The notes under the pieces are model-generated. The model had not been told where the DNA came from. It saw only the letters and a list, made by a program, of their open reading frames with translations, and ran no database searches. A stretch of 64,000 nt of DNA from a virus. The stretch lies in IMG/VR virus record IMGVR_UViG_3300044941_000276, positions 41,642 to 105,641 of that record; one strand, written 5' to 3'. This document shows positions 3,369 through 58,280 of this stretch, one piece after another. Numbering within the stretch: the first letter of the stretch is position 1; the number at the start of each line of letters is the position of its first letter. The position numbers and the translations under genes were made by a program.

Positions 3369-4217
3369 TTACAAAGAATAAAAATCTGCGTATGTAGTGC
3401 CTGCTGTGTCTGGCGTTGTGTTGTTATACGGTGTAACAGTTAATTGTCTTGTGCTTGGGCGACAAATGGGTGCTTGCCCGTTCACACGGTTGAAGTCTAT
3501 ACTGATAAGATTCTTTAAGTCTGATATAGCTACTTTACCAGCTTGGTGAGCAGCGTAAATTGTTCCATAATTATGAATAGCACGTAACTCTTCTGATGAA
3601 CATTCTTTTTCTAACAAAATTTCAAAACTGCGGATATATCCTAAAAACGCGTTTTGTGCTTCTCTTGGCACAGGCCCTAACCTGCGATTTGGATAAGCTC
3701 CAATAGCGGCAAAATTACTTGTTGTATTTCTTCTTACATTAAAATTGTATTGCTGTGTGTATCGTCTACCGTTGAAAGTATTATTTGGATTTTCTACAAT
3801 CGGATTTGAATTATATGCAACAGAAAAAATAGAACGTCTGTTTGATGTATTAATATTTACTCCCACTGATTTTCGCCCTGTTAATACAGTAGATGGATGT
3901 AAAGCTAATGAAATTTGCGAAAGGAGTTCAGTCCCAGCATAAAGAATGTATAAATTTACTCTTCCTTCCCCTGATACCCAATCGCTCAGCCCCTGATTAA
4001 ATATTACGTTGCCGCCATCATTAAAGCTAACTGGCTCCGTCCTTTGATTAAAAAATGCTACCGAAACTGTTAAAGGTATCTGCAAAAACGGCAAAGTATC
4101 TGCGCCGTCGCCAAGCAATATCCACCTGTTTACGTTAAACAACATTGCATTGCCCGCCAATGCGCTGCGGTGAAATTGGTTATCTCTATCGCCTAAAACT
4201 TTAACTAATCTACTCAT
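3369..4217 (-). CDS. putative tail/receptor-binding protein (beta-rich, lectin-like)
   Basis: Asn/Thr/Gly-rich; FLGYIRSFEIL..ELRAIHN resembles a LamG/concanavalin C-terminus. Confidence 0.4.
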   Translation of the reverse strand: MSRLVKVLGDRDNQFHRSALAGNAMLFNVNRWILLGDGADTLPFLQIPLTVSVAFFNQRTEPVSFNDGGNVIFNQGLSDWVSGEGRVNLYILYAGTELLSQISLALHPSTVLTGRKSVGVNINTSNRRSIFSVAYNSNPIVENPNNTFNGRRYTQQYNFNVRRNTTSNFAAIGAYPNRRLGPVPREAQNAFLGYIRSFEILLEKECSSEELRAIHNYGTIYAAHQAGKVAISDLKNLISIDFNRVNGQAPICRPSTRQLTVTPYNNTTPDTAGTTYADFYSL

Positions 4218-11321: not shown

Positions 11322-14300
11322 CGCTTCTTCTCATTAATGTTAATATATTTTTAATATACAAATATTGGTTAGTTTTATAAGTGATCCGTATTTTACAATA
11401 TTTGTCTCTAATTCTTCTGTTTATAAAGTTAGATAATTTTCTTGTATCGCTCTCATCTTTTATTACTGTTATATACATGCGATCTTCTTTATATACAGCA
11501 TCATAAGTAAATAAAGAATTGGCAGGATTTTGTAAAAAAGGTTTTGATCCATTATCTACTACGTTTCTGGGACGTATTGTTTGTATATAAGTACCACTGT
11601 CAGTAGTATATTCTATGGTATGAGGATATATATGATTGCCAATTATAATAAGATTGTCTATTATTACTTGTGTTTGAGCATCAAGAGATGCAACAAATTC
11701 AATTACTGTATCGTATTGATTACCATAATAATTGGAATGATCTTCTGACACATAATGTTGATATATCAGAGAGTCTTTGATACCATATATCTCATCTCTT
11801 ATATTAAACATTATATCGGGATATATAGGTTTAAAACTTAACCACCTACCTATCGGCATTTCATTATACAATAATGATTGCGATACACCATCAGCTAAAA
11901 ACGAAAACCATATATTTTGTTTAAATGTATCGTAAGTAGCTCTTATTTGTGTGGTTTGATATACATCGGGAACATCTATAAACTTTTCGCTTATTGATCT
12001 AAGATACTTTTGAACCCTAAGATCAGATATTAGTTCCAATTGATTTCCTCCTACTCTCCATATTTTACTTCTATCAATATCTACCCCATATACAGTATTA
12101 TCGCTAGCTACTACTGAAGCTTGCCAACGAGATCCATATCGTTCTGATAAATAATTAATTGCTCCTTCTGGTGGAAGAACTCCAGCTGATTGAAAAAACA
12201 CAGCGCCTGCGCTGTCTCCAGTTTGAGCAATGCGTTGATTTACAGGAATCATAGCTACCCCGTGAGAAAACACTACGATTAAACCTTGACCGTTATAAGG
12301 TCTTATAGCTACTATATCTCCTACGTGATTTGGATAATCTCTATAATTTAACCCAGAGAATCTTCTATATCCATTATCAAATGATTTTGAAACAAATAAC
12401 TCAGAATATTGTATACGTGTTGAAAAATCAGTTTGTATAAAAGGTATGCGATTTCCTAATGATTTATATATGGTATCGCCTTTTACTCTATTATAACCAG
12501 TATTGTAATTATCTGATTCTAAAAATTGATATTGTCTCCAAGTATTTTTATTACCAGTCCATTCTATCTGTTCATATGGAGGGTTGGGTTTAGTATAATA
12601 TGGAGCCCATTCTCTTATACCTTCTGCTACATCAAATATCTGTTGGTTTCTAATATTTATGTTTACATTACTATCTGAAGCAAATGATATCGTAGGTCCC
12701 AATCTAACATATCGAGATAAGTTGCCATCGTTCACAAGAGGATCGAGTTGATTTTTATATAATCTTCTAAAAGTAATCGATACAAAATTATCTCCATTGT
12801 AACCTTCTATTTTACCATTGGTAAGTACTTGACTACTAGCCGATCCTTGATTTTCAGAAATCGATTGTTGATTCCAATATGTCCAATGAGTTATTGGCAT
12901 ATAATCCTCTGCTTCTGGAAGATGGGTATCGATAAGAGCTTTACCATCAACTGGACCAAATCTTGGATATATATTAGCGTGGGCCGCTACTACTCTTCTT
13001 GTAGTTTTTACACTAGCTCCGAACATTTCATATTCTTCATTGGGTGTATCGCTTTTACTAGATATAAAAAATCCAGACTCAGCATTACCTACTCTTGATG
13101 AATAAAAACTGTTATTGTAACCATTAAAAGGAGATAATAAATTTTCATTACTAGTATCGATTGTTACACCTACATAATCATTATATGATAAAGGATGATA
13201 GCTGTAAGCACCTGATCGATCTCTATTTCCAGTAGCAAACATGACTTTATTGAAAGCTTGAAATAAAGCTCTACCTGTGAATCTATTTTTAGTAACAGTC
13301 GACGAATCTTTATCTATAAACTCAAGCTCTGCACTCTTAATAGTGAGAGTGCGTGTGTTAGTCGATACCTCTTTATACAGACTAAACATTGAAGGTAATG
13401 GTTCAAAATCTCCTCTTGATATACCACTTTCAAAATCTTCAAAGCTATCCATGTTTCTAGAACCGGCTATATTAGGTTGCGTCACACTATATACAAATTG
13501 ACTATTTTCATATACTAGCAAACCTTTATCTCTTCCACTTAATCTTTGAGAAAATATACCTTTTTCCCCCATAAAATCAGGGCTGATAAAAGCATATCTT
13601 TTATTAATATACAATGGTATAGAAGCGTTTTGAGGATAAGCTGCATTATTAAGATCTCTTACATAATTATTATTATTCATTAAAAACTTTACAGCTTCTA
13701 CCGAATAACTATATATCGTATCGGTTCTATTAATTTGTCTACCGTTATTTGATTGATTTGCTTTGTATATACCTGCCGATTCCAGTATGTATTCTGGTGC
13801 AGGTATAAACTTAGAATTTAATTCACTATATCCTCTTTTTGACTGATCGGGTATATTATTATAAGTAGTTAATTCTCCACCTCCGTCTCCGTTTCCCATT
13901 TTTTTATAAGAAGTATCAACATAATCGTTTTCTGGTATAATAAAAGTGTTTATTATTATACCTGATGATATCGCATCGCGTTTTCTTTCTTTTGCTCTGT
14001 GAATACGAAAACCCACAGTGTTTTCCTTTATATAATCAGAGACTTCGGGAATGTTAAATATCGGATGGATTATCCCAACACTTCCATTTTCAAGAATCTT
14101 ATTCAAATAACTTCTTAACGGAAATCGATATATACCTCTTACATTTTCGTAATTATTACGTTCATCATAATCAATATCTCCGCTAAGATCAGACATATTA
14201 TATGACGCATCGTTATATATATTATCGATACCTCTAATTGGAAATACAGGACTCAACGAACCATTTTTAAACATATATTGTATACCAAACATATAGGGTT

Positions 14301-15675
14301 CTCCTGGCCAATATCCAAGCCTGTCATGTACATTTCTTGGATTGGCATAACCCGATGGATAGCCATCAAATCCTGCTCCTGATGTTATGGGGTCATATAT
14401 ATCAGAGATCACATTGTCAAAAGTAGCACCCTTTACGCCCAATCGTTTTTGTGCATAATCTATTGTAACTTTATTAGAAAATTTTTTAAGTTCGTTATAA
14501 TCAAAACCTGCTGTTTTAATATTACCTACAAACAATCTACCTTGTAATTCTGCACCTGTACGATAAGTCAAAATGTTAGACGTTGTTAGTGAGAGATTGT
14601 TTATATTAATTTGATTCGCTATTTCTGTACCTCTATGAGTATAAGATACTTCGGTTTTACCATCTATTACTATTTCTTGTTGTACTTCAAATAATGATGG
14701 TTGAGGTTCTACATCTTGCCCCGATACATAAGTATAATATAACTTTAAAGCGTAATAATCAGGATCTATATTATGAAATACTAGTTGATTAGCTTTTGTT
14801 GTTAATTCATTTGGTACACCGCCTCTAATATCAGCTACAGTATTTCCAAAAAATACAGGAATTGAAAACGATTGACATATCACATCAGTAAGATTACCAT
14901 CTCTAGTGCTATATCGTATATAGTAAGTATATGTACCAACTGGCAATCTACCTGAGTTATCTTGTCCTAAAAACTCTATCCATCCCAATCGGTTAGATGT
15001 AATAATATGATTAAGATTGGAGTCAAAATCAGAAGCTTCATATCGATTATCATCGGTTGCGCCAATGCGATTTACCATAACATATCGATTGTTAGGCATA
15101 ACGGAAAACCCACTATTTATTAACCGAGGTTTATTGTAATTATCTGTGAATATAACATTAACTGACCCATCGTAGCTTGGTTGTATAGCTACTATCTCGC
15201 AATGGTTTGTTTCTTTAAAATTAAACAAGTCGGTATTAAAATCACCGTAACTTCCTATTTTATTATCTCCATCTTTATAATTTTTAAAAGGTTGATATCG
15301 ATTGACCATTTCTCCCAATCGCGAACAATTATCGACATCATTTCCTCCAATACACGATTCGAGAGTATAATTATCATAATCTGGACTAGGATAACTACCT
15401 ATCTCTCCTCTACCTGTAAACACACCATTGATACTCTCTGCTGAAATTATATAACATACGTTACCGTATGTTTTCCAAGCAATAGGATGATAATTTTGTT
15501 TTAATTCCGATCGCAATAGAGTACCTTTTTCATTTTGAAGTATAAGCTCGTTTCCATTATGAGAAACAAAAGTAACGTTCTCAGCATAAGTATATACGTT
15601 ATCAGGGGTAGCATATATTGCGCTATCGGTAGTTAACCCATCGTTAAATACATTATTTTTTACTTCTTTTGACAT
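11314..15675 (-). CDS. tail stabilisation/muzzle protein (crAss Tstab, P22 gp10-like)
   Basis: 1453 aa; N.F..GL.TD...TYAENVTF...NGNELILQNE.G; GRGEIGSYPSPDY; LGYWPGE.Y.FGI; C-terminal RIRDKY.KIRI.Y. Confidence 0.85.
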   Translation of the reverse strand: MSKEVKNNVFNDGLTTDSAIYATPDNVYTYAENVTFVSHNGNELILQNEKGTLLRSELKQNYHPIAWKTYGNVCYIISAESINGVFTGRGEIGSYPSPDYDNYTLESCIGGNDVDNCSRLGEMVNRYQPFKNYKDGDNKIGSYGDFNTDLFNFKETNHCEIVAIQPSYDGSVNVIFTDNYNKPRLINSGFSVMPNNRYVMVNRIGATDDNRYEASDFDSNLNHIITSNRLGWIEFLGQDNSGRLPVGTYTYYIRYSTRDGNLTDVICQSFSIPVFFGNTVADIRGGVPNELTTKANQLVFHNIDPDYYALKLYYTYVSGQDVEPQPSLFEVQQEIVIDGKTEVSYTHRGTEIANQININNLSLTTSNILTYRTGAELQGRLFVGNIKTAGFDYNELKKFSNKVTIDYAQKRLGVKGATFDNVISDIYDPITSGAGFDGYPSGYANPRNVHDRLGYWPGEPYMFGIQYMFKNGSLSPVFPIRGIDNIYNDASYNMSDLSGDIDYDERNNYENVRGIYRFPLRSYLNKILENGSVGIIHPIFNIPEVSDYIKENTVGFRIHRAKERKRDAISSGIIINTFIIPENDYVDTSYKKMGNGDGGGELTTYNNIPDQSKRGYSELNSKFIPAPEYILESAGIYKANQSNNGRQINRTDTIYSYSVEAVKFLMNNNNYVRDLNNAAYPQNASIPLYINKRYAFISPDFMGEKGIFSQRLSGRDKGLLVYENSQFVYSVTQPNIAGSRNMDSFEDFESGISRGDFEPLPSMFSLYKEVSTNTRTLTIKSAELEFIDKDSSTVTKNRFTGRALFQAFNKVMFATGNRDRSGAYSYHPLSYNDYVGVTIDTSNENLLSPFNGYNNSFYSSRVGNAESGFFISSKSDTPNEEYEMFGASVKTTRRVVAAHANIYPRFGPVDGKALIDTHLPEAEDYMPITHWTYWNQQSISENQGSASSQVLTNGKIEGYNGDNFVSITFRRLYKNQLDPLVNDGNLSRYVRLGPTISFASDSNVNINIRNQQIFDVAEGIREWAPYYTKPNPPYEQIEWTGNKNTWRQYQFLESDNYNTGYNRVKGDTIYKSLGNRIPFIQTDFSTRIQYSELFVSKSFDNGYRRFSGLNYRDYPNHVGDIVAIRPYNGQGLIVVFSHGVAMIPVNQRIAQTGDSAGAVFFQSAGVLPPEGAINYLSERYGSRWQASVVASDNTVYGVDIDRSKIWRVGGNQLELISDLRVQKYLRSISEKFIDVPDVYQTTQIRATYDTFKQNIWFSFLADGVSQSLLYNEMPIGRWLSFKPIYPDIMFNIRDEIYGIKDSLIYQHYVSEDHSNYYGNQYDTVIEFVASLDAQTQVIIDNLIIIGNHIYPHTIEYTTDSGTYIQTIRPRNVVDNGSKPFLQNPANSLFTYDAVYKEDRMYITVIKDESDTRKLSNFINRRIRDKYCKIRITYKTNQYLYIKNILTLMRRSDA

Positions 15676-15970
15676 CTCGATATAATTTTTCTAATTTACT
15701 ACTGTCAAGGTTTTCTCCTAAAACCGTTATAGGGGATTCTCTTAACTTTGTTAAAAAATCCCACATTGTGGAACGAGGTACTAATAAAAAATCTTCTTTT
15801 AATCGAGTTCCTATTTTTACTATAATACGATAAACTATTGCAAAAGATATAACAGTATCTACTGCAAATATTAATATTTTTGCTTGTTTACGAGTCATTC
15901 CTGGATAATATCCCATCATTATATCGTAGTAATCACTAGGTCTTTTAAAAAATAGCGACTTTTTTTTCAT
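15653..15970 (-). CDS. small conserved protein at the position of crAss IHF-like genes
   Basis: Synteny only. Confidence 0.4.
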   Translation of the reverse strand: MKKKSLFFKRPSDYYDIMMGYYPGMTRKQAKILIFAVDTVISFAIVYRIIVKIGTRLKEDFLLVPRSTMWDFLTKLRESPITVLGENLDSSKLEKLYRDVKRSKK

Positions 15971-16394
15971 CTATTGTTTTATCTAAACGGTCCATATATT
16001 CTTTTTTAAGTAATAATTCTGATCTGACATTACTTCTTATAAACAATATACAATACATCTTAAAATTTCTTTTAATTATATTACCTTTATAATAAGGCAT
16101 AAGTCTTTTAGCTGTTTTTTCGTGTCTAGCAGCTATCCTGATTTGATATCCGTTACCTCTATATATTTTACCTTCATCTATTACGTCTTCTATAACATGA
16201 CTCATGTATCGTCTAGCAAATTCGGAAAGAAATTCGCTATAAGTACTATACTTCCCCCATTTTCTTATACCTATTTTGGCAGAAGTTAATATTTTTAATT
16301 TTAATTTTGAAAACAATTGTATAAAACTTATAGACCCCAAATCAAGCAGAGCTATAAAAGTTTTAGCTGATCGTATACGGTTTATAAGGTACAT
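15945..16394 (-). CDS. basic protein, probably divergent IHF/HU-like (crAss IHF_54 position)
   Basis: Synteny; VIEDVIDEG motif; true start may be downstream. Confidence 0.4.
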   Translation of the reverse strand: MYLINRIRSAKTFIALLDLGSISFIQLFSKLKLKILTSAKIGIRKWGKYSTYSEFLSEFARRYMSHVIEDVIDEGKIYRGNGYQIRIAARHEKTAKRLMPYYKGNIIKRNFKMYCILFIRSNVRSELLLKKEYMDRLDKTIDEKKVAIF

Positions 16395-40006: not shown

Positions 40007-40357
40007 GTCGGGTAGGTCCCCCTTCGGGGGTAAGTGTGCCTCAATCATTAGCCACATGATGAGAGGCACAACCATACACTCGCCACACGGTGTATGGTAA
40101 GTAGCAAGTGTGGGCATATTTTCATTGTCTTGGTTGAAAATATGCTTCCCCAGATATCTGGGAGTGGGTTTTTTTAAAAAATCCAAGACATCCACCCCTC
40201 AGTCCGAGTGAGGGAGAGTGTGACCAAGTTGTTGTAACCATCCGACAACTTGGCACACGAGGTGGATTATGTAGGCAAATTGAAGACGCCTAATCTCGGA
40301 ACGGGGTAAGCCGAAAACTCATAAAAAGAGTAGGCGTAAATTGAAAACGACTAGTTT
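40007..40357 (+). ncRNA. structured non-coding segment (hairpins, pseudoknots, AAUUGAA loops)
   Basis: Back-to-back inverted repeats, e.g. CCCC-TTCG-GGGG, ACCATACAC/GTGTATGGT, GCATATTTTCA/TGAAAATATGC. Confidence 0.55.
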
Positions 40358-40615
40358 ATGACCAGGACTATCATATCGGAGGTGAACACAGCTCACCTTC
40401 ATATGATCAAAGAAAGATTTGATCATGAGTACCCGCTACCAAACGGAGGGTACGTACTATATTCGTTTTGCTCGTCGACATCAAAAGATATTGAAGCTTT
40501 AATCATTGTAGTAAAGAAAGAAAAGCTCATCAAATCGAGAGCTTTTCTTTTCACGGGGGAGGTTCTCCAATTGGAAAATTTCCTCGCTAAACATGGGATT
40601 GAAATATCCCTTTAG
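40358..40615 (+). CDS. early hypothetical protein
   Basis: ORF track; ATG follows an AAUUGAAA hairpin. Confidence 0.55.
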   Translation: MTRTIISEVNTAHLHMIKERFDHEYPLPNGGYVLYSFCSSTSKDIEALIIVVKKEKLIKSRAFLFTGEVLQLENFLAKHGIEISL

Positions 40616-40619
40616 CGAG

Positions 40620-41265
40620 GTCTCCCCTTTTTTCCCCTTGCTGCCATTTAATGGGTAAAACGGCAAGGGGGTTTTAAAGCCCTGTCAGGCGAAATTGAAG
40701 ATGACAGGGCATCTTTCTCCCTACCTTGGGTAAGTAGGGAGATATTTTATACCCATCGTCGAGAGAGGATTCGACCCGTGTAAGCGAAGTGCTCTGGCCG
40801 GTCGCAGCACGGGTTGTTATCCATTTTTTACTCCTCACCTTGAGCAAGTGAGGGTGGGTGTTTGCTCACGTCCCTCAATCGGACTGCAAATGTAACGTCG
40901 TTATTTGATGGTTACTCAAGCCGGTTCGATGAGGGACACTTATTTGACTAAGACGGGGTCAGATAAGTAAAAATTAAACCGTCTCTGCCGAAAAGCTCGC
41001 GACGCGTTTTGCTCGCTGAGCATTGGCAGATTCCCCGAAAGGGGAAATTAGCGCCCCTTAAGTGGGGCTTTAGCTTGTCCGTACCATACCGGACTTAAAC
41101 ATAGTATGGTAAGCCTTTGTACTAGGCTTTGATTGAGGGGTAAAACCCAAGAGAAGGTACAAAGACCGTCACCTAGCATCGCTTTTTATGGCTTTAATCA
41201 TGCTATAGGTAGAATCAGAAGACGGCGCGCACAGGGTTCTTTATGAGCTTCTTACCTGTGCAAAA
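40620..41265 (+). ncRNA. structured non-coding segment upstream of tRNA-Arg
   Basis: More than 10 consecutive stems, two H-type pseudoknots, no ORF. Confidence 0.55.
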
Positions 41266-41271
41266 TAAGTT

Positions 41272-41345
41272 ACTCCCATAGCTCAACTGGATAGAGCAAC
41301 TGCCTTCTAAGCAGTAGGTTGCAAGTTCGAATCTTGCTAGGGGTA
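41272..41345 (+). tRNA. tRNA-Arg (UCU)
   Basis: Cloverleaf; anticodon arm ACTGC-CTTCTAA-GCAGT; T arm GCAAG-TTCGAAT-CTTGC; one C-A mismatch in the acceptor; no encoded CCA. Confidence 0.92.
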
Positions 41346-41387
41346 CGATTAAAAAACCTAATCACAATTAAAAAAACAAAAAACGTT

Positions 41388-41804
41388 ATGAACAAGAACA
41401 CATTCGTTTTTGTGATCACCATGTTGGTGGTCACAATCTTTTTGGCTGCCGCTGCGGTAGCCAAGCCCCGCCCGAAATGGGTGCGGGTTAGCCACTCTAT
41501 CTTATCAACCGTTGACCGTATCGACCGAGATACGGTTGCAATTAAGCTCACCTTCGTCCGCTTTGACGGCGAAGGTCGTCCTACTATTGGTCAAAATTTG
41601 GGTCACTTTATTATAGAAGTGGCCTTCACAGTCGACCGCTCAGAGGCGGTACGCATTTTAAACGGCGGGCAGTTGTCCGCCAACGGGCATGTCCTCGCCC
41701 GTATAAGCGAGGGCACCAAAATAATTCGTGACCCTGAGGGTCGCGAAATCCGCCGTATGAAAGCGGCGGATATCTGCAAGATCCTTTATGGGTCTTCAGA
41801 GTAA
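41388..41804 (+). CDS. early secreted/membrane protein
   Basis: Likely start MNKNTFVFVITMLVVTIFLAAAAVA (signal peptide). Confidence 0.65.
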   Translation: MNKNTFVFVITMLVVTIFLAAAAVAKPRPKWVRVSHSILSTVDRIDRDTVAIKLTFVRFDGEGRPTIGQNLGHFIIEVAFTVDRSEAVRILNGGQLSANGHVLARISEGTKIIRDPEGREIRRMKAADICKILYGSSE

Positions 41805-41809
41805 AAAAG

Positions 41810-41843
41810 ACAAGGCGGTTTCTATGAAATCGCCTTGTTTTTT
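41810..41843 (+). terminator. rho-independent terminator
   Basis: ACAAGGCGGTTTC-TAT-GAAATCGCCTTGT-TTTTT. Confidence 0.85.
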
Positions 41844-41844
41844 A

Positions 41845-42941
41845 TCAGGGTGAGAATCCCTGACAAGCCTGTGGGGCTCATGTCTTGCTAAGGCATTGTT
41901 GCACTTGTATAGGGGAAGAGTAGTAAAGTCGAGTAATATTGCTGCGTTAGGTAATACTATAAGCATTATGAAAGAGGAATATCTATTTTGACTATATGGC
42001 GCAATGTCTGATCAAGCATTAGTGCGGACTCAAAAATCAGGCAGTGGTACAGCCTTAATCTGTACAAATCTTTGTTTATCAAAGATTAACAAGGAAATAA
42101 CCAATACCTTGTCCTAACTATGGGTAAAATAGTAGTCGTCCTTTTTTTAAATGTATTTTTTAAACCTGTACTATCGTCCCCGGATAGTACATCAATAGTG
42201 GCACAAGGAGGCCGCGAGGGGCGAAGACATATGGTCTTCAATGTTTAACAAATCGTGGTATTGAGCTAGACCACGTTGAAATAGTTAGCTCGCCTGTCCA
42301 CAAACACGGAGGTGTGACAGGTTCATGGGAGAAGAAGAGGCCGTCAATATTAAACGACGTGTCTCTAAAGAGAAAAGGGTTTCCGTGTTGCGACTGAATC
42401 TCATGTCGCACAAGTTAACGACTTGACCCGAGATATATGTAGCTCTATACATTAACAATAACTACGTCAACAATAGATGTAGGGAGTGGTGTATATCTAT
42501 ATATGTACGATTTGAGACTGGACAACTCAAATCAATATGTACAATGTCCAATAGCCGTACGCCACAACGGCTATGATATCTTAAGATATAGGTCGATATT
42601 AAAAGACCTTATCTTAGATATAATTATTTTAGTCAAGGGCATGAATCGGGGTTGACATCCCGATAAGGGTATGGAGTAAAGACCATACTTGAAAACGTCA
42701 GCGTCCGATAATCAAATCAACAATAGATTTGAGGAGGACGTTAAGGCGAATTGAAGTCGCCGTCATTTTTCTATCCTGTACGGATAGTTGTCAAAGTCGA
42801 CCATGGGACTAAGACGTAAAAACAGAAAGAAGCCTAAGTCGTGCGATGCTTCGCATCGATATGGTGAGCGCTCATGGTTATAGTAGGAGACTACGACAAT
42901 GTCGTATGTCGTTATTACTACTGAATAAGTCCGAAAGGACT
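41845..42941 (+). ncRNA. ~1.1-kb ORF-free structured region (candidate large ncRNA or ncRNA array)
   Basis: Dense hairpins, long-range stems (GCCTG/CAGGC, GACCATGGG/CTCATGGTT), pseudoknots; ends at a hammerhead. Confidence 0.5.
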
Positions 42942-42997
42942 CTGTCGTCTATGTGCGTGGCTGTGCATAGGCCTGATGAGGGGTTAACCCGAAACAG
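42942..42997 (+). ncRNA. type III hammerhead ribozyme
   Basis: CUG-UC | stem I 42947-56/42963-72 | CUGAUGA 42973-79 | stem II GGG..CCC | GAAA 42991-94 | CAG; GUC cleavage after 42946. Confidence 0.85.
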
Positions 42998-43087
42998 TAT
43001 TGCCCGCGTAAAATAAGACTGCGTTAAGGTCTTGTGAGTGATGCGTGCCCACTCAGAACGGCATTAATTTTTTATCCAAAATTGAAG

Positions 43088-44212
43088 ATGGATAGAAAAT
43101 TAATTAACGCCCTAGAATGCGAAAAGTATATACAGAAAAAACTTTTCGCGTTCAACGCCGGCAAGACGCTGGCTAGGGCGTGGAACGCGGGGGAAAATTG
43201 TCTTCTTACCGGACCTGGTGGGTACGGTAAGACGGACGGAGCTGCTTTGTTCTTTGAGTATCTCAAAGAACAAGGGGCTTTGTCTGACGAACGTCCATAC
43301 GTATTGGCGTTCGGACAGGGCATGACTGAGGAAAGGTTATTCGCTGGGTTGGATATCAAACGCTTTCAGAATGAAGGCGAATTGGTGTACAACCTGAAGA
43401 AGGCCTTCGTATCCTTCGAATATGTAATATTCGAGGAAATGTTCGACGCATTTCCTGGGGTATTGCTTATTCTGAAGGATGTTCTTCAGTCTAAGAGCGT
43501 ACGGTTAGGCGACACCGTATTTCCCTTGCGAACTAAATTTATAGTCGCCTGTACCAACCGTAGCAATGAGGAAGTCGCTACGGATAGAAGTACATGGGCT
43601 CTTTTAGAAAGATTCGTCTTTCAAAAAGAGGTAACCTGGACTTCGTGGGAAAAGTCCGACTACCTCTCGGCTTTCGAGGCAGCCACAGGCCAGAAAGCTG
43701 ATTCCGTAATGGAGGCTGTGGCAAGAATAGCTGCTGCCAGCAGCAAAGGTGAGATGAAGATCTCGCCTCGTACTGCTGGTAAAGGTCTTAAGGCAGTAAA
43801 ACAAAACGGTAACGACATTACCGTTTTGGAAGACATTCTCGGCTTCGATAAGAAGTCGGTAAGAGAAGTCTTCACTGCTATGGAAGGCATAGCAGCAGAC
43901 AAGGCTCAACGTGACCACGTAGCTGCGGTGGTCGCGTTATGTAAGCAGACAGCAGCTACTTCTTCGAATTCCGCCATTAAATTGGCGGTTGCCGCTAAAC
44001 GAGTTCACGTAGAACTCGAAAAACTTAGTGGAATTCAACGTCGTGATGCGAACGTTGAATTGTTCGAGGAAAGCATCATTGTCATAGAGAATCTGAGGGA
44101 GTCTCTATGGCAAAGAGCCAAGTCCCTTATTAACAAGCCACCAGTTGGCAGCTTGGCAGAGTTTATACAAAACTCTAGCACAAGCTCATTCGACTGGAGC
44201 TTGTTGAGATAA
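43088..44212 (+). CDS. MoxR/RavA-like AAA+ ATPase
   Basis: Walker A GPGGYGKT, Walker B VIFEE, ACTN, ALLERF, ISPR; likely start MDRK at 43088. Confidence 0.85.
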   Translation: MDRKLINALECEKYIQKKLFAFNAGKTLARAWNAGENCLLTGPGGYGKTDGAALFFEYLKEQGALSDERPYVLAFGQGMTEERLFAGLDIKRFQNEGELVYNLKKAFVSFEYVIFEEMFDAFPGVLLILKDVLQSKSVRLGDTVFPLRTKFIVACTNRSNEEVATDRSTWALLERFVFQKEVTWTSWEKSDYLSAFEAATGQKADSVMEAVARIAAASSKGEMKISPRTAGKGLKAVKQNGNDITVLEDILGFDKKSVREVFTAMEGIAADKAQRDHVAAVVALCKQTAATSSNSAIKLAVAAKRVHVELEKLSGIQRRDANVELFEESIIVIENLRESLWQRAKSLINKPPVGSLAEFIQNSSTSSFDWSLLR

Positions 44213-44290
44213 TCGTTAACCCAATCTCTTGGGTTTGACTTGCATATAAGGTTAATCGTAAAAGCAAGGTAGTTATAATTTTATGGGGTT

Positions 44291-45520
44291 ATGAAAAAAA
44301 GAACCATACCCCACCATCTGTACGTTGAGCCTACGCGGCGAGACGTACAAGAAAGATTTAAGGAGTTAGGTTTTGATAAAACCTACTCTTATGATCTCGT
44401 ACGGGATATTGCTAATGCGATGTCTCACGTACAGAATGGTGGGAAAGTCACTGACGCAATGACCAACGTCAGTGATTGGGTTCTTCCTTCTGACTATAAG
44501 TCAGAGAGGGAATATCAAAGAGCACTCTCGTATCACGAGAATGTTCAAAGATTTATTTCTTCTCTTGACTTTGACAAGTTCAGTGGCAATACTCCGCTTG
44601 CAAAAGCGGCAAGTGTTGTAGCTGCACTGTCTAGTCAAGAAGGGGGACAAGGCGAGGAGGGTGATGGTCAACCCTTGCCAATCTTCCGAGGTTCGTCAGA
44701 ATCTATGGAAGAAAAGGCTAAAAAGTTGGAAGAGGCAGTTGATCAAACTGTCGAGGCCAATAAAAGCCTTGCGAGGTACATCATCAATCCTGATGAGGCC
44801 TCCCCAGAGGTGGCTCTCGCGACCTTGAACAGCGAGAATCGGGACCTCTTAGCCAAGTTAGCGCTACTTGGTGACAGGGGTAAGATACGTTCACAGCGCA
44901 CTTCTCCCACAAACAAACTCACTCAAATGAGTGAGTATTCACAGGTGGGTCGTGTGAATAATATGAGTAGTATGTTTCTCCCAACTTTCGGGTATAAATT
45001 TGCGACCAAGCAATTGGTTGTGAAAGAACCCGAACAATCAACGAGACAAACCCTTGTCTTATTGATTGACAACAGCGGTTCTATGGACGAGACCGACAAA
45101 TTAAGTTGGGTCAAAGCCATAGTAGTTAACAGATTAGACGCTGTTAGTAAGGGAGAAGCTGAGTTGTATATCGGTTGGTTTGAATGTTCTCTTGATGAAG
45201 AGAACATTGTTAAAATTGCCAACAAAAAAGAAGCCATAGCTTTTTTACAAGAAGGCTTCTTGGGTAATTTTAACGGGGGAAAAACTGATATACAACGGGC
45301 CATTGAACAAGTTTGCGAGGGAATCAAACTTGGAAGGCTCGGTAATTATTCCCTCAACGGAGTTAAGCCTCAAATCGTTGTAATGAACGATGGGCAAGAC
45401 TTTGTTGATAGCAATTATAAACCCAGTGTTGTGACTCACGGGTTTATCTTAGGGCGTGACAATGACGGAATGAAGTCAATGATCGCCAATTGCGGAGGTC
45501 ACTATGAGAGATTTTTATAA
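44291..45520 (+). CDS. vWA-domain protein (ViaA-like partner)
   Basis: MIDAS LIDNSGSM, GG.TDI, MNDG. Confidence 0.85.
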   Translation: MKKRTIPHHLYVEPTRRDVQERFKELGFDKTYSYDLVRDIANAMSHVQNGGKVTDAMTNVSDWVLPSDYKSEREYQRALSYHENVQRFISSLDFDKFSGNTPLAKAASVVAALSSQEGGQGEEGDGQPLPIFRGSSESMEEKAKKLEEAVDQTVEANKSLARYIINPDEASPEVALATLNSENRDLLAKLALLGDRGKIRSQRTSPTNKLTQMSEYSQVGRVNNMSSMFLPTFGYKFATKQLVVKEPEQSTRQTLVLLIDNSGSMDETDKLSWVKAIVVNRLDAVSKGEAELYIGWFECSLDEENIVKIANKKEAIAFLQEGFLGNFNGGKTDIQRAIEQVCEGIKLGRLGNYSLNGVKPQIVVMNDGQDFVDSNYKPSVVTHGFILGRDNDGMKSMIANCGGHYERFL

Positions 45521-45727
45521 TCTTTCTTTTCCCTATGCTCTACTAATAGGGATGTAAAACGATAGTAGCTGGAAGAAAACTACCCTACCTCAGGGTTATG
45601 TGACTATAAGGGTTAATGGGTGCGCTACCATTAGAAATGTCACGCATATAAAAATCCTGCCATTGCAGGTTGAAGCACAAAACCTTACCCAGTTTTGTGT
45701 GTATATAACTCATGGGTAATAAAAGAC

Positions 45728-45973
45728 ATGGATAACTTTTTTCTTGAGTTATTTATTATAACTCAACAAGAAAGAATTCAATCCGAGGGATTATTTTCTA
45801 TCCTTTGCCGAATTGAAGAAGGCAAGGATATGAAGAAAATCCCTTTCCATTCTCAAAAAGAGATGGAAGATTTCCTCTGGTTAAACAGAGGGAATTATCT
45901 ATTCATCTCTTTGGAAGAGGCTGGGCTATTAGTGTCCACCTCTCCATTTGAGAATGGATTGGGAGTGAATTGA
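45728..45973 (+). CDS. small early hypothetical protein (start 45728 or 45830)
   Basis: ORF track; internal ATG at the foot of an AAUUGAAG hairpin. Confidence 0.45.
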   Translation: MDNFFLELFIITQQERIQSEGLFSILCRIEEGKDMKKIPFHSQKEMEDFLWLNRGNYLFISLEEAGLLVSTSPFENGLGVN

Positions 45974-46157
45974 TTGGGGACCACCTGCACTAATCATCGG
46001 TGGGATATAAATAGAGGATTTTTTCTAACCATTCCATTTTGTAATATTACAAATAAAGGTTGAATCTGCGACAGGCATAGGGATATGTGCGAGTAATAGC
46101 AGAAGAGGAAGCCGAAAAGCTAAGTGAGTAGGCAATAACTATCCAAAAAATTGAAGA

Positions 46158-46475
46158 ATGGATATGATCAAGTTTTTATTTCCTCAGGTAGCCAAGTCTA
46201 CCTTTGGAAAAAAGATGTTTAATCGCATAGCTCCTATCGTAGAAAGACTATGCGATGAAACATCGATGATCGCAATGCCCTCAATCGCGATGTTTCTTAC
46301 TTACCATCCCGGAGCTTCTGCTCCGCAGCAGATGGTATTTAATTATCTTGCAGAAGTCGCACTGCAAGGCAACTGGAGAGTATTTGTTGCGACGTATGGG
46401 GAACTCATTTCTCCTTCTGACCCATTGGCTGTATTGGGTCAAGACGGAAGAAAACAGTTCTTCCGACCAATGTGA
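46158..46475 (+). CDS. early hypothetical protein
   Basis: ORF track; ATG inside an AAUUGAAG hairpin. Confidence 0.65.
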   Translation: MDMIKFLFPQVAKSTFGKKMFNRIAPIVERLCDETSMIAMPSIAMFLTYHPGASAPQQMVFNYLAEVALQGNWRVFVATYGELISPSDPLAVLGQDGRKQFFRPM

Positions 46476-46822
46476 AGCTTTACGTCCTTAACTCTGCGGT
46501 AATGCCAGAAGATGGTTATTATCGCAGAGTTAAGATAAGTAGAGAGAAGGCTTCCGAGATACTCAATACAGCCACAGAAATTGTATCTTCTGTTGGGTAT
46601 CCGGAAGTTTGTCAAATATTACATGAAATATCAGGAGTTGTTGTTCCTCTTGATATTGAAAAGCGAGTAACAACATTTACTGAAGACGAGTGTACTATAT
46701 TAGTATGTAAACTTGTCTTCAGGGAAAAAGCAGAACGAAAAGGAGTTAATCGTCATACCGACATTAACGAATATGAGTTCTGCTTAGTTCATTATAAAAA
46801 AAATAACCCTTTTATCAAATAA
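46472..46822 (+). CDS. DUF1874 / STIV B116 / YddF family protein (AcrIII-1-like)
   Basis: LYVLNSA.MP..G.Y....IS.E.A..IL.....SSVGY....IL....G..VP...R......LV.KL..R; catalytic GH reads GY. Confidence 0.72.
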   Translation: MKLYVLNSAVMPEDGYYRRVKISREKASEILNTATEIVSSVGYPEVCQILHEISGVVVPLDIEKRVTTFTEDECTILVCKLVFREKAERKGVNRHTDINEYEFCLVHYKKNNPFIK

Positions 46823-46843
46823 ATAATAAAAGGGTTATTTTTT
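46798..46843 (+). terminator. rho-independent terminator
   Basis: AAAAAATAACCCTTTTAT ... ATAAAAGGGTTATTTTTT. Confidence 0.75.
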
Positions 46844-46876
46844 AATTCATTCAAATCATAATCGTTTATCATTCAT

Positions 46877-47071
46877 ATGGAATTATATCCTATAGTAGAA
46901 TGTTCAACAAAAGAAGGAGCGTCGCTTATTGTTTCTTTCTTTTGTGAAAAAGGTTTTGACTTCTACTTTGTATTTACAGGTAATAAGAAACCTTATCTTG
47001 TAGTTACAAATAAGGAAGGTCTAAAAGCTTTTGAGCAATGGAATCATTCATTAGCAACAATTGTTCATTAG
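46877..47071 (+). CDS. small hypothetical protein
   Basis: ORF track. Confidence 0.55.
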   Translation: MELYPIVECSTKEGASLIVSFFCEKGFDFYFVFTGNKKPYLVVTNKEGLKAFEQWNHSLATIVH

Positions 47072-47122
47072 CAGGTTTCATTAACAACTTATTCACTTTT
47101 CATTAGCAATTTTCATTAGCAA
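47047..47122 (+). repeat. five copies of TTCATTA(G/A)CA
   Basis: Direct repeats just upstream of ATG 47125. Confidence 0.7.
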
Positions 47123-47124
47123 TT

Positions 47125-47337
47125 ATGTATCAAGTCACAAAAAATATAAACGGAGTCTATGCTGAGGCTACGTTTAAAACAAGAGAAGAGGCCTTGCGCC
47201 AAGCCACACGTTGGTTCGATTCCATGAACACTGATATTTCAGATTTATGCGGATCGTTCATTAGCCGTATTGTTAGCGGTAAGAATATAACTTATAGATT
47301 TCAAAAAGCATCCTTAACAATAAGACATGAAAAATGA
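47125..47337 (+). CDS. small hypothetical protein
   Basis: ORF track; F.TREEA motif. Confidence 0.6.
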   Translation: MYQVTKNINGVYAEATFKTREEALRQATRWFDSMNTDISDLCGSFISRIVSGKNITYRFQKASLTIRHEK

Positions 47338-47557
47338 AATCTATGGGTCTTTTTCGTCAATGACATTGACGGAAGAGGGAAAGTTGATTATAAATTTTCT
47401 ATCGGACAATAACGAAAAGTTTATTGTTGAAATAGAATCTTTAATAAAAGAAGATGGTAGCGGAAGAAAATTTTTAATTAATCATAAACATGTAAACTCT
47501 ATTAGCGGCTATGTTGACTTTGCTACTAATAAAGGTTACATAAAAATTAAAAATTAA
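47327..47557 (+). CDS. small hypothetical protein (EDGSG..F motif)
   Basis: ORF track. Confidence 0.6.
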   Translation: MKNEIYGSFSSMTLTEEGKLIINFLSDNNEKFIVEIESLIKEDGSGRKFLINHKHVNSISGYVDFATNKGYIKIKN

Positions 47558-47562
47558 ATTTT

Positions 47563-47570
47563 TACTTTTG
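47563..47570 (+). promoter_or_regulatory. TAnnTTTG -7 element (TACTTTTG) upstream of the tRNA-like/tRNA cluster
   Basis: Consensus match in an intergenic region. Confidence 0.5.
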
Positions 47571-47687
47571 TTGTTATTATAACAGCAAAGGTTTATTTGC
47601 GAACTCTTAACTCAATAAGTTAAACTAATTGACTTATAAAGAGTTACAAGTTCGTCTTGTAGAGCTCACCATCAAAAATCAGATTTT

Positions 47688-47828
47688 AGAGGTGGCGCTG
47701 GATGCGCCTTGGATGCTGGCAGGCGCGCGACTGTGCAACATCGGTACTGGCAAGAAGCTGAACGACGGTTCAGTGGATGTTAGCAAAGGGCTGCTCCCTT
47801 GAGGCCGGTTCGATTCCGGCCACCTCTA
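47688..47828 (+). ncRNA. 141-nt tRNA-like RNA (acceptor and T arm, multi-branched core)
   Basis: AGAGGTG/CACCTCT-A; GCCGG-TTCGATT-CCGGC; no canonical anticodon arm. Confidence 0.7.
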
Positions 47829-47842
47829 CTTAAACAAACAAA

Positions 47843-47916
47843 GGGTCCATAGCTCAGCCGGTTAGAGCATCTGACTCATAATCAGGGGGTCGCAAGTTCG
47901 AGCCCTGCTGGACCCA
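47843..47916 (+). tRNA. tRNA with CAU anticodon (probably Ile2/lysidine; Met possible)
   Basis: GGGTCCA/TGGACCC; TCTGA-CTCATAA-TCAGG; TTCGAG T loop. Confidence 0.9.
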
Positions 47917-47957
47917 CAATCGTTCATTCACAAAAACCGCGACTGAGGTATCAGCAA

Positions 47958-48203
47958 ATGGATGAAAGTTCCTTTACAATTATGTATATGATAACGGTAG
48001 AAGTTTATGATTGTGAAAAAGGCACTAATCGCTATGCGATAAAAGCTGCCAACTTCGAAGAAGCTGTTGAAAGATATGAAGATATCAAATCACGCATCAC
48101 CGTAAACTGGACTCGCCATCCAGCAATCACCGAAGAAATTAAACACCTCGATTGTACATACGATTCTTTTAATGAAGGTTGTATAATCATGTCTCGTGTT
48201 TAA
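47958..48203 (+). CDS. small hypothetical protein
   Basis: ORF track. Confidence 0.55.
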   Translation: MDESSFTIMYMITVEVYDCEKGTNRYAIKAANFEEAVERYEDIKSRITVNWTRHPAITEEIKHLDCTYDSFNEGCIIMSRV

Positions 48204-48211
48204 AAATATTA

Positions 48212-48314
48212 CCATCTATCGTCTAAGTAAGACGATTTGACAATCGCTTATAACAAAAATTGAAGATTATAAGCAATTGTTAAATAAATACAGGTTCGTA
48301 TCCTGTTAGATGGT
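48212..48314 (+). ncRNA. tRNA scaffold whose anticodon arm is replaced by an 18-bp AAUUGAAGA hairpin
   Basis: CCATCTA/TAGATGG; D arm GTCT-AAGTA-AGAC; long arm 48235-48285; T arm ACAGG-TTCGTAT-CCTGT. Confidence 0.75.
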
Positions 48315-55753: not shown

Positions 55754-56920
55754 ATGACAAAGATAAATCTCACAGAACTACAAAATTATTTTAATGAACG
55801 CATGTATGGTTTTGATGCCAAAATATTTGGTATTGCTTGGAATAGTAATCAAAATGTATTACTGACAGGTCCAGGTGGATATGGTAAAACATACAGCGCT
55901 CAATTATTTTATGATTTTTTAGTACATAAAGGTATATTTCCAGAAGGTAGTAAACCTTTCGTTCAATCATTAAATCCCGATACTACCACTGAAAAGATCT
56001 TTGGCGGTACTAACATTAAAGAATTTACCGAAAACGGAGCTATGGTTTATAATTGCCATAATAGCTTTGCTAACGCGCCTTTTGTTATCTTTGAGGAGTT
56101 TCTTGACGCACCATCATCTTCTTTGATGGCTCTTAAAGATGCTCTTACTTCTGGATATGTCAGAGATGGTCTTTATACCTATGAGGTAAAAACAAAGATG
56201 ATAATTGCTTGTACTAATCTTTCAGCAGATGAATTTGCGGAAGATGATGCTACACAAGCTTTATTAGAGCGTTTTAGATTTCAAATGGTTGTACGATGGA
56301 ACAGTCATACAGAAGACGATTATATAAAGTCCTATGAAATAGCAACTGGTAATAAAGGAGACAATATCATTGTTAAAGCAGTAGCCAATGCGGCAGCTGC
56401 TTCTTACGGTGTAGGTGGAGATCGTCCAGTAAGTCCTCGTACTTATATGACAGCGGTTGAAGCTTGTAAAGGATGTGATAAAGATATAGATCCTTTGACT
56501 CCGTTGTATTATATGGATTATCCTGGTGGGTTCAAACCAGCAGCTGTTAAAACTGCTAGCGCTAATCTTGCAGCTTTAAGAAAAGTTATGGAAGATCTTG
56601 AAAGATTAGCCAATTATCAAAGCATGTGGGATACTTATAAAGAGAACTTTAAGACTACGGCTAAAAATATTAACGAAGAAAACTTAATCAAGTTATATAA
56701 TATGGCCGCTAAACTTAAAGAAACTTTAAGCGAGGTCTCGCTTATTAAAGTTACAGATAACGCTTTACCTAACTATCGTAAACTTCTTAGTAGCTATAAA
56801 AGTTTATATACTAGTTGGTATGAGTTTATCGCAAATAAAGTCAAAGAAGACCCATCAATTACTAACGAAAATCTTTTAAAATTATCCAATAGTAGTGTTG
56901 AAAGATATGAATTCAATTGA
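55754..56920 (+). CDS. MoxR/RavA-like AAA+ ATPase (paralog 2)
   Basis: GPGGYGKT; VIFEE; IACTN; ALLERF; VSPR. Confidence 0.85.
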   Translation: MTKINLTELQNYFNERMYGFDAKIFGIAWNSNQNVLLTGPGGYGKTYSAQLFYDFLVHKGIFPEGSKPFVQSLNPDTTTEKIFGGTNIKEFTENGAMVYNCHNSFANAPFVIFEEFLDAPSSSLMALKDALTSGYVRDGLYTYEVKTKMIIACTNLSADEFAEDDATQALLERFRFQMVVRWNSHTEDDYIKSYEIATGNKGDNIIVKAVANAAAASYGVGGDRPVSPRTYMTAVEACKGCDKDIDPLTPLYYMDYPGGFKPAAVKTASANLAALRKVMEDLERLANYQSMWDTYKENFKTTAKNINEENLIKLYNMAAKLKETLSEVSLIKVTDNALPNYRKLLSSYKSLYTSWYEFIANKVKEDPSITNENLLKLSNSSVERYEFN

Positions 56921-58280
56921 GCCTAGAGTGATTAAACACAGCTCATATGATTATCTTTCCGATAGCTTAATCAACGCCCGCTTTGATGGAGTGGGCGTTG
57001 TTGAAGCTAAAAGAGAGAAAATGAGCTACGATCTAATAAGAGATCTTGCATATTATCACAGTTACTTTTTCATGGGGGAAGACCCTAAAAAAGCATTGAT
57101 AGATGCACATACTGCTTATAAAAGAGAAGACTTCAATAGCGATGAAGAGTATTGGGAGCGTATAGCTTATCACAATAATATTATCAATTTTATAAGAGAT
57201 ATAAATATCAACATATTTACAGGTAATACTCCAGCCCAAAAAGCGGCATCGGTAATGTTGTCTATTTTAGCAATGGATAATGAAAAAGATAATAGTGAAA
57301 AAAATGGCGCTATGATGGACTTCTTTAAACCTACCGATGAAGAAATTGATAAAGCTAAAGAAGGAAAGCTAAACAATGGCAGAGAAATCCCTACAGAAAC
57401 AAAGAAGAATAATAAAGAAAGTGTCAATGGTAGTGTTGCTGGTGGACAAGGAAGGGCTGATAGGGTTACTTTACTTGAAGACTATGTTCACACTACAATC
57501 AATTATGCTATCGATAGTCCTATTGCAAGTGAATATTTTAATACCACTACTACTAATGGAGAATTGGCTTTATTTAATATGACTAATGAACAAAAAATAT
57601 TAATAAACCAACTTTCCATTGTTTCTTCTATGGGAAAACTCAATACTAGAAAAAAGAGACCTGGTAAATGCTATGGTTTAATGAATGACATAGGTGATAT
57701 AGTACACGCTTCTCCACGATCTCAGTTATTATCTCCTATACTTCCTATAAAATTAATAGAGAAGACTCTTACCACTAGTAAATCAAAACAAGGAGGAAAG
57801 CAAATACTTATATATCTTATTGATGATAGTGGATCAATGAGCGTTATAGAAAAAGTACGTTGGGTTAAAACTTTGATGATTAATCGTCTTGATGCTGTAG
57901 CAAAGAATAAAGCAGAATTATATGTAGCTTGGTATATAGAAGATATTATACCTAAGTCAATTATTCATATTAAGAATAAAGCACAAGCAATAGAATTTTC
58001 TAAAAAACAATTCTTTGGCAATTTTAACGGAGGTGGTACTAATATAGCAAGAGCTATTGAAAGTACTGTTAATAGCATCAAAAGTAATAACTTTTACGGT
58101 AACCCTATTAAAGGTGTAAATCCTCAAATAGTTTTGATTAACGATGGTCAAGATTTTATAGATAAAAATTACGAAGTAGGTAAGGGAATTACACTTAATA
58201 GTTTTATTTTAGGGGGTGATAATAAAAACTTAGAAATTGTTACACGAAGATCTGGAGGGACTTATGTTAGATTCTTATAG
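56907..58280 (+). CDS. vWA-domain protein (paralog 2)
   Basis: LIDDSGSM; GGGTNI; INDG; NRLDAV shared with 44291. Confidence 0.85.
   Translation: MNSIEPRVIKHSSYDYLSDSLINARFDGVGVVEAKREKMSYDLIRDLAYYHSYFFMGEDPKKALIDAHTAYKREDFNSDEEYWERIAYHNNIINFIRDININIFTGNTPAQKAASVMLSILAMDNEKDNSEKNGAMMDFFKPTDEEIDKAKEGKLNNGREIPTETKKNNKESVNGSVAGGQGRADRVTLLEDYVHTTINYAIDSPIASEYFNTTTTNGELALFNMTNEQKILINQLSIVSSMGKLNTRKKRPGKCYGLMNDIGDIVHASPRSQLLSPILPIKLIEKTLTTSKSKQGGKQILIYLIDDSGSMSVIEKVRWVKTLMINRLDAVAKNKAELYVAWYIEDIIPKSIIHIKNKAQAIEFSKKQFFGNFNGGGTNIARAIESTVNSIKSNNFYGNPIKGVNPQIVLINDGQDFIDKNYEVGKGITLNSFILGGDNKNLEIVTRRSGGTYVRFL

Follow-up and report, generated by a model that had tools for sequence, protein, structure and literature searches.

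Whether hairpins placed over start codons control the genes that follow them is a question raised several times within an 8.2-kb island (40.2–48.4 kb) of a 64,000-nucleotide (nt) stretch of phage DNA, referred to here as the window (bases 41642–105641 of the 105.6-kb IMG/VR virus record IMGVR_UViG_3300044941_000276, which is estimated to be ~71% complete). An initial annotation of the window had proposed that hairpins with a common loop hold the start codons of several genes, among them a moxR gene, and keep these genes off until the loop is bound or cut. In following up this proposal, we found that the hairpins constitute a genuine family and that pairing of the moxR start codon is kept in distant relatives. 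The hairpin at the moxR start most likely represents a hitherto uncatalogued signal in RNA that affects translation. Tentatively, we favour a reading in which the family members are RNA operators recognised through their loop, two of them occluding start codons; folding in vivo, reading of the loop by a factor and the direction of the effect on translation are the three things that we infer.

The motif common to the loops, AATTGAAG, occurs 11 times in exact form in the window, compared to 5.4 expected. Seven exact copies are located on the plus strand of the island and seven in the other ~203 kb (both strands). Together with one AATTGAAA variant, the seven island copies span positions 40272–48274 of the plus strand, and each of the eight is presented in the loop of a hairpin (W1 to W8). 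The stems of these hairpins (5–19 pairs) are mutually unrelated and share no base, and common to all of them is an A-rich loop of 7–14 nt (A/purine-rich). Perfect flanking stems of at least 5 base pairs (bp) were present at 7/8 of the island ATTGAAG sites versus 10/272 relaxed-motif sites elsewhere (Fisher p = 2e-7), and a scan of the whole 105.6-kb genome revealed no member of the family outside the island. The hairpin family is real and goes beyond chance. It is also uncatalogued and absent from Rfam, in which no family scored above chance over any of the hairpins; the DUF805b, Hatchet and tRNA elements of the island adjoin the hairpins but miss their loops. Fold energies across the family range from -4 to -17 kcal/mol, with strong folds (-15 to -17 kcal/mol) only for W5, W3, W6, and W8.

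At W5 (43063..43104, plus strand), a stem of 16 pairs (15 Watson-Crick and one G-U) with the loop AAATTGAAGA and a fold energy of -15.3 kcal/mol contains the start of moxR (43088..44212, plus strand), which encodes an AAA+ ATPase of the bpMoxR type (374 amino acids, aa) whose homologues carry PF20030 and PF07728. The loop ends at A43088 and the stem resumes with T43089-G43090, placing the moxR ATG at the junction of the loop and the 3' arm, as had been noted from the sequence. This ATG is the true start of the gene, since it aligns with the N-termini of 19 homologues (357–396 aa). The closer moxR homologues P0002–P0006 show 53–77% identity. Opening the region from -12 to +12 around the moxR AUG was computed to cost 12.6 kcal/mol, whereas the median across 89 phage genes is 4.9 kcal/mol. 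This cost is the fourth highest of the 89 starts, and the doubtful ATG 45830 (see below) is among the three above it. Both mRNA structure and upstream adenines modulate initiation in Bacteroidia, the adenines doing so at positions -3, -6, and -11 to -14 in Flavobacterium johnsoniae (PMC6847099). The start regions of the phage are A/T-rich and lack a Shine-Dalgarno (SD) signal genome-wide, which fits a Bacteroidota host and agrees with the earlier assumption of a host that relies on unstructured A-rich leaders. Given structure-tuned initiation of this kind, the modelled cost of 12.6 kcal/mol makes strong repression of moxR by W5 plausible. For the weaker W7 and the hairpins of the relatives described below, mild tuning is more likely than a block. 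The proposal that a stem over the start codon blocks initiation is plausible at moxR, but would have to be weakened to tuning for W7 and the relatives, and its further part, that the genes are kept off pending binding or cutting of the loop, found no support.

The second start codon embedded in this manner belongs to a 105-aa gene. At W7 (46140..46164, plus strand; TATCCA / AAAAATTGAAGAA / TGGATA, -4.0 kcal/mol), A46158 lies in the loop and the following TG in the stem, confirming the predicted position at the loop/stem junction, and a second in-frame ATG (46164) begins at the last stem base. The 105-aa gene is real by its third-position substitution bias ([2,5,24]) versus L009, the one close relative found in IMG/VR (95% identical), in which the start context is retained. 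It is followed by an STIV_B116-like gene at 46502–46822 (below the Pfam cut-off). The start region of this AcrIII-1-like gene (46470–46540) is the most structured of the genome, with ~28 kcal/mol to open, and is devoid of the loop motif. Equally real by the same measure is an 85-aa gene ([8,5,28] versus L009, start context again retained there), whose ATG 40358 had been described as lying just after a stem and indeed is found 5 nt past the end of the W2 stem (40331..40353, plus strand; TAGGCGT / AAATTGAAA / ACGACTA, with one internal mismatch).

Two further start codons had been assigned to the hairpins. ATG 45830 does overlap the last stem base (A45830) of W6 (45799..45830, plus strand; TATCC(T)TTGCC / GAATTGAAGAA / GGCAAGGATA), but its use as a start is doubtful. 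An 81-aa reading from ATG 45728 aligns end to end with 81–83-aa homologues in L014, L010, and L021, three of the relatives introduced below, which places W6 inside an 81-aa open reading frame (ORF; 45728–45973). ATG 45830 is therefore probably an internal Met of the 81-aa gene starting at 45728. This upstream ATG is preceded by a degenerate copy of the motif, CATG-GGTAATAAAAGA-CATG. A separate hairpin at 45747–45775, located inside the 81-aa ORF or ahead of it, differs between the window and L009 by a compensatory A-T to G-C change. At W3 (40679..40710, plus strand; 9-bp stem, loop GGCGAAATTGAAGA), GAAG-ATG 40701 opens a 10-codon mini-ORF in the motif context as described before, but this ORF is not conserved and is replaced by 33 unrelated codons in L009. 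The stem of W3 and its 9-nt motif are retained there although the surrounding stretch is only 81% identical. Of the five start codons assigned to the hairpins, those of two genes are thus correct and a third is nearly so, whereas a fourth is doubtful and that of the mini-ORF is wrong.

No start codon is located near W1, W4, and W8 (3/8 copies). W1 (40272..40292, plus strand; TAGGC / loop AAATTGAAGAC / GCCTA) lies 8 nt upstream of a DUF805b RNA, and two-sided changes in L009 extend its stem to 7 bp (TATAGGC/GCCTATA). W4 (42745..42761, plus strand; GGCGA / ATTGAAG / TCGCC) is followed by a T-run. W8 (core 48246–48274, plus strand; loop CAAAAATTGAAGA) represents the 'anticodon arm' of a tRNA-like cloverleaf, and the entire hairpin (stem, loop, nearby flanks) is identical in L009. 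Because these three copies lie away from starts, occlusion of start codons is not the function of the family as a whole. A reading of the hairpins as intrinsic terminators was rejected, as only W4 passes a terminator scan and the other copies are long-looped and without a T-run. Likewise, an SD-like role of GAAG/AAGG was ruled out by the spacing of 0–3 nt to the AUG and by the sequestration of the anti-SD described for Bacteroidia ribosomes. Host-type -7 boxes (TAnnTTTG) upstream of the hairpins were found only before W4. In this region, a TCAACAATAGAT(G/T)T..GGAG string is repeated at 42467–42485 and 42717–42735, and the second TCAACAATAGAT copy holds a TAGATTTG box of the host -7 type, 21 nt upstream of W4.

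Start hairpins recur beyond this phage. A profile of moxR homologues retrieved 16 metagenome loci at 41–54% identity. In group A (L010, L012, L013, L014, L016, L021, L024, and L025), the 3' arm of a 5–7 bp hairpin with the loop AAAUAGAAGAC (AAAUAGAAGAA in L014) contains the moxR ATG, and in group B (L015, L017, L018, and L019), the loop of the moxR start hairpin is AAAUUAAAGGUA. One relative, L011, carries a plain A-rich leader in place of the hairpin. Counterparts of W5 with covarying stems were found in L010, L014, L016, L017, L021, and L025: the stems covary with codon 2, reading TGGATA/TATCCA here and ATGAGA/TCTCAT, ATGGAT/ATCCAT, ATGGA/TCCAT, or TGTATAT/ATATACA in other cases. RNAalifold returned no structure for the start hairpins, as their differing loop lengths keep the stems from lining up in the MAFFT alignment; we therefore compared the stems one pair at a time, without a covariance model. 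Read in this way, the stems support the view that start-codon pairing at moxR is a selected feature, kept by compensating changes in far relatives. The start hairpins of the relatives are weak (-4 to -6 kcal/mol) and their moxR starts cost 5.7–7.4 kcal/mol to open, their AUG being paired throughout almost the entire ensemble. In L014, the homologue of the 81-aa gene of the window is preceded by a further copy with an identical loop. The loops thus follow the lineage, with UUGAA(G/A) in all eight copies here (UUGAAGA), UAGAAGAC in both copies of L014, and UUAAAGGU in group B. Uniformity within a genome together with divergence between lineages is the pattern expected for a motif that is read in trans. 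A search of GTDB genomes with the moxR profile gave no match, and a DNA search of a phage collection for close relatives gave tRNA matches only.

Several copies are directly preceded by RNA elements. A DUF805b RNA (Rfam RF02914; 40301..40336, plus strand; 36.1 bits versus a gathering threshold of 35.6) lies between W1 and W2, its overlap with W2 being limited to 6 nt at the beginning of the 5' arm, and a second DUF805b-like RNA (46102..46134, plus strand; 32.1 bits, below the gathering threshold of 35.6) is found 5 nt upstream of W7. Since DUF805b is located 9–26 nt upstream of the first ATG in Bacteroidota chromosomes, it can be regarded as a leader element. This Bacteroidota leader motif has been acquired by the phage. 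In L009, two DUF805b copies (2991–3027 and 3623–3661) flank a ~600-bp insertion that is absent from the window, suggesting recombination at the repeated motif. The island also contains a Hatchet ribozyme (Rfam RF02678; 41841..42042, plus strand; 70.3 bits versus a gathering threshold of 51) with a large insertion in its variable stem, a stretch that is replaced by ~30 nt in L009. In five group A loci, a compact Hatchet (51–56 bits, gathering threshold 51) ends ~31 nt upstream of the moxR hairpin. About 65 nt upstream of W5 lies a candidate hammerhead-like core (42942..42997, plus strand; CUG-UC, helix I, CUGAUGA, GGGGUUAACCC, GAAA-CAG), which is complete and of type III by sequence reading and reaches only 16.5 bits in Rfam, as type II. 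One change in L009 converts a G-U pair of its helix I to A-U, with pairing retained.

The tRNA-like cloverleaf that carries W8 (48211..48314, plus strand) has acceptor, D, and T arms and folds at -35.1 kcal/mol (z = -7.25); its 'anticodon arm' is a 19-pair helix with the family loop on top. ARAGORN did not call it as a tRNA. The shape recalls YrlA-type RNAs, and the phage has no TROVE gene by a PF05731 search. Two tRNAs are also found in the island. The ribozyme and leader elements immediately 5' of the copies make it very probable that the whole hairpin is transcribed, and the upstream RNA elements together with the copy on the tRNA-like scaffold argue for an action in RNA rather than as a DNA promoter. 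The G-U pairs of W5 (one here, two in L009) correspond to A-C mismatches on the opposite strand, and W5 of L009 folds at -14.7 kcal/mol on the plus strand versus -8.5 kcal/mol for its complement.

According to the favoured reading, the hairpins would act in RNA, each displaying a single-stranded A/purine-rich loop (core AAU-W-R-AAR; UUGAAGA here) for recognition by a trans-acting factor, with no constraint on the sequence of the stem. At moxR, at the 105-aa ORF, and more loosely at the 85-aa ORF, the 3' arm that holds or abuts the AUG would turn the hairpin into a translational operator, which, when folded or when folded and bound, would reduce initiation by ribosomes that need an unstructured A-rich leader. 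W1, W3, W4, and W8 with its tRNA-like scaffold could serve as further targets of the same factor or as competitors for it. A more far-reaching version, in which a single loop reader (a phage or host protein, or a nuclease) controls several early genes as a phage regulon through hairpins over their start codons and is titrated by the noncoding copies, one of them on the tRNA-like scaffold, seems somewhat doubtful to us.

A number of observations weigh against loop-recognised operators. Half of the stems (W1, W2, W4, and W7) are marginal with -4 to -7 kcal/mol, the spacing between motif and ATG varies from 0 to 15 nt, and a clear strand asymmetry of folding is seen for W5 only. In L009, W2 retains the loop motif with its 3' arm lost, and the inner stem of W6 is weakened by a G-to-A change. 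Moreover, the relatives show only one or two copies per 9–17 kb examined. Finally, none of the CsrA, RegA, RegB, TROVE, Pfam, and PHROG searches returned a candidate for the reader. CsrA (PF02599) gave no match in the genome as represented by the ~71% complete record, in a search whose control worked, and no loop contains GGA. The loops also lack GGAG, the cut site of T4 RegB. RegB and RegA, the latter recognising an AU-rich operator in T4, gave no match either (PF10715 and PF01818), a weak answer given that the controls produced no signal. None of the small ORFs of the island is named RNA-binding by Pfam or PHROGs, the RegB and Pfam searches identified no nuclease gene, and no convincing site complementary to the loop was found.

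Adjacent to moxR, both here and in the relatives, is a gene for a vWA partner (44291..45520, plus strand; 409 aa; Pfam VWA_2). Its structural model comprises a C-terminal vWA domain preceded by a helical part of ~190 residues, which is well modelled as far as residue ~117, with a mean predicted local distance difference test score (pLDDT) of 65. This partner was ruled out as a Ro60-like RNA binder, as PF05731 (TROVE) gave no match in a search with a working control and the predicted model is without a TROVE ring. A second moxR-vWA pair (388 and 457 aa), 28–43% identical to the pair of the relatives, is located at 55754–58280 of the window and has a plain A/T-rich leader without a hairpin.

Could the hairpins act without any factor? 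A clamp or insulator of the start region, whose stem keeps an A-rich landing pad open and shields the start from strongly folding RNAs nearby, would be in line with the ribozyme or leader motif directly upstream of the hairpin and with the weak stems of the relatives (5.7–7.4 kcal/mol to open). It would also be in line with the group A loop, which places A at -3, -6, and -10 to -13 and thereby matches the positive F. johnsoniae positions (PMC6847099). In this phage, however, the A-3/A-6 rule fails, with a U at -6 in W5 and a G at -3 in W7. A clamp moreover leaves unexplained why an identical loop of 8–9 nt recurs in copies without a start codon or on a tRNA-like scaffold, and why loops are uniform within a genome and different between lineages. 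Further support for a clamp might be sought in the 19-mer of loop and ATG, CATAAAATAGAAGACTATG, which is likewise found where chromosomal genes begin in Bacteroidota metagenome-assembled genomes (MAGs). GTDB holds eight matches, six of them in Bacteroidota and mostly at gene starts, but about eight are expected from base composition (an estimate), none of their stems reaches past the searched bases, and five host genomes show no enrichment of the 10-mer, so the 19-mer simply resembles a host start region. Apparent starts with CATAAAATAGAAGACTATG were seen in L037, L039, L040, L042, L043, and L044 (Bacteroidota MAG contigs), and the matches include a 158-aa purE-like gene in three Marinilabiliales MAGs. 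In IMG/VR, the group A 19-mer was discarded as two in-coding chance matches in records in which the motif is not enriched. Overall, we consider a factor-free clamp unlikely. We are more sceptical of a processing signal, in which an endoribonuclease (host RNase E/G-type or phage) would cut the loop, set 5' ends before the AUG, and free the AUG from the 5' arm, such cuts also dissecting a long early precursor alongside the ribozymes and tRNAs. The island is dense in cutting or processed RNAs (Hatchet, hammerhead-like core, two tRNAs) and the hairpins stand at the heads of units. RNase E prefers to cut at RN/WUU, and the loop AAAUU fits this preference, but the group A loop (AAAUAG) fits it less well. 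Besides, a cut in W8 would split the tRNA-like RNA and no nuclease gene has been identified, making this option distinctly unlikely.

An analogy with phage N4 suggests that the hairpins could instead be early promoters for a virion RNA polymerase, with initiation close to the loop yielding leaderless or short-leader mRNAs. Judged from its genes, the source is a distant crAss-like phage, i.e. a tailed phage with double-stranded DNA: the large terminase is ~27% identical to those of Crassvirales phages, and portal and terminase match PHROG head-and-packaging families. Genes are encoded on the minus strand up to ~39.2 kb of the window and on the plus strand from 39.7 kb to its end, and the hairpins share the orientation of the genes and occur only where the rightward block begins, as promoters might. 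Phage phi14:2 has a virion RNA polymerase that uses, and prefers, single-stranded DNA as template, and no motif is common to its early promoters (bioRxiv 10.1101/2020.03.07.982082). Here, a plausible candidate for a crAss-type virion RNA polymerase is an 1881-aa protein with the sequence GGDYDVDK (DYDVD motif), encoded outside the window (L008; genome positions 10344–15989, minus strand) next to genes for 3041- and 1691-aa proteins. It gave no match in PDB sequences, Pfam, or PHROGs, and its nearest Pfam-bearing Atlas cluster is of the RNA-dependent RNA polymerase (RdRP)/QDE-1 type (PF05183, 0.81), a weak lead. Two terminator-like hairpins with T-runs, seen by eye and omitted by the terminator scan, precede W3. 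Yet RNA motifs directly upstream of the copies imply read-through transcripts, one copy resides inside a tRNA-like RNA, and no hairpin of the family precedes the first plus-strand gene (39716). Loops of 7–14 nt on 5-bp stems are poor cruciform candidates, a start site 3' of the hairpin as in N4 (PMC4496689) would exclude the moxR ATG, and no similar family of hairpins is present in the early region of phi14:2. We consider promoters of this kind very unlikely. Lastly, the hairpins might be repeats for recombination or module shuffling without a regulatory role, similar to the promoter early stem-loops (PeSLs) of T4-type phages. Differences between the window and L009 do fall at repeated RNA motifs (the ~600-bp insertion between DUF805b copies; the Hatchet missing in L009), but these indels are bounded by DUF805b and not by hairpins. 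Recombination requires shared sequence, of which the copies have only 8–10 nt, and their stems are kept by compensatory change over large distances; as an explanation this is scarcely credible.

If the regulon with a titrated loop reader considered above indeed exists, a crAss-like phage would possess a circuit resembling CsrA/CsrB or the iron-responsive element (IRE), coupled to 5' ends made by ribozymes and working in SD-independent hosts. To our knowledge, the scheduling of early expression in crAss-like and other Bacteroidota phages is largely unknown, and the early promoters of their virion polymerases have no known motif. The candidate signal is compact, with one loop of 8–10 nt on interchangeable stems that is linked to a validated start, to ribozymes, and to a host-type leader, and it is maintained by compensatory change across distant marine and freshwater relatives. 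Identification of the reader would define a new post-transcriptional control element, and would also hint at the function that Hatchet ribozymes upstream of genes have in nature.

Elements with which the hairpins can be compared differ in how much they share with them. Lambda boxB, the target of N, resembles the family in its position near the beginning of early transcripts and in its short stem, whose purine-rich loop ends in GAAGA, but is a GNRA-like pentaloop on a 5-bp stem compared to 7–14 nt in this family; an N-like protein and boxA were not searched for here, and none was seen in passing either. The synthetic insulator RiboJ, which a factor-free clamp with a ribozyme upstream would resemble, has the same order of parts: a self-cleaving ribozyme retained at the 5' end of the mRNA (Hatchet in the relatives, hammerhead-like here), a short spacer, and a hairpin at the start region, which in RiboJ precedes the ribosome-binding site. 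Unlike RiboJ, the arrangement here is natural, the AUG is paired instead of the site being exposed, and the loop sequence is conserved. With the promoters of the N4 virion RNA polymerase, the family shares co-oriented hairpins, conserved loop bases, and location in the early region; a phage-borne polymerase, T7-like and single-subunit in the N4 type, would be a further parallel if the 1881-aa candidate is one. The N4 promoter, however, has a stem of 5–7 bp, and its loop of 3 nt sits in a GC-rich heptamer with its centre at -11; some of its stem bases are conserved, and transcription begins 3' of the hairpin (PMC4496689). The loops described here are A-rich and 7–14 nt long, the stems have no base in common, and the 3' arm contains the ATG. 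CsrA/RsmA, with its GGA loops and sponge RNAs, and the eukaryotic IRE and iron regulatory protein (IRP) system resemble the family in having a common loop on variable stems, some copies of which lie at starts and others in competing noncoding RNA. In contrast to both systems, the loops contain neither GGA nor CAGUGN, no CsrA gene was found, and the reader is hypothetical. The phage operators, such as that of the MS2/R17 coat protein on the replicase start and those of T4 gp43 and RegA, likewise comprise a small hairpin that holds or abuts the start, with the loop as the likely recognition surface and a free stem. While the levivirus coat protein of MS2 recognises a 4-nt loop on a 7-bp stem with a bulged A, the loops here measure 7–14 nt and no bulge is conserved. 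Different from these operators, the family also comprises about eight copies, some away from start codons, in a double-stranded DNA crAss-like phage. The feature that defines an operator of the MS2 type, a start codon within the hairpin, is nevertheless present in W5, in W7, and in the moxR hairpins of the relatives.

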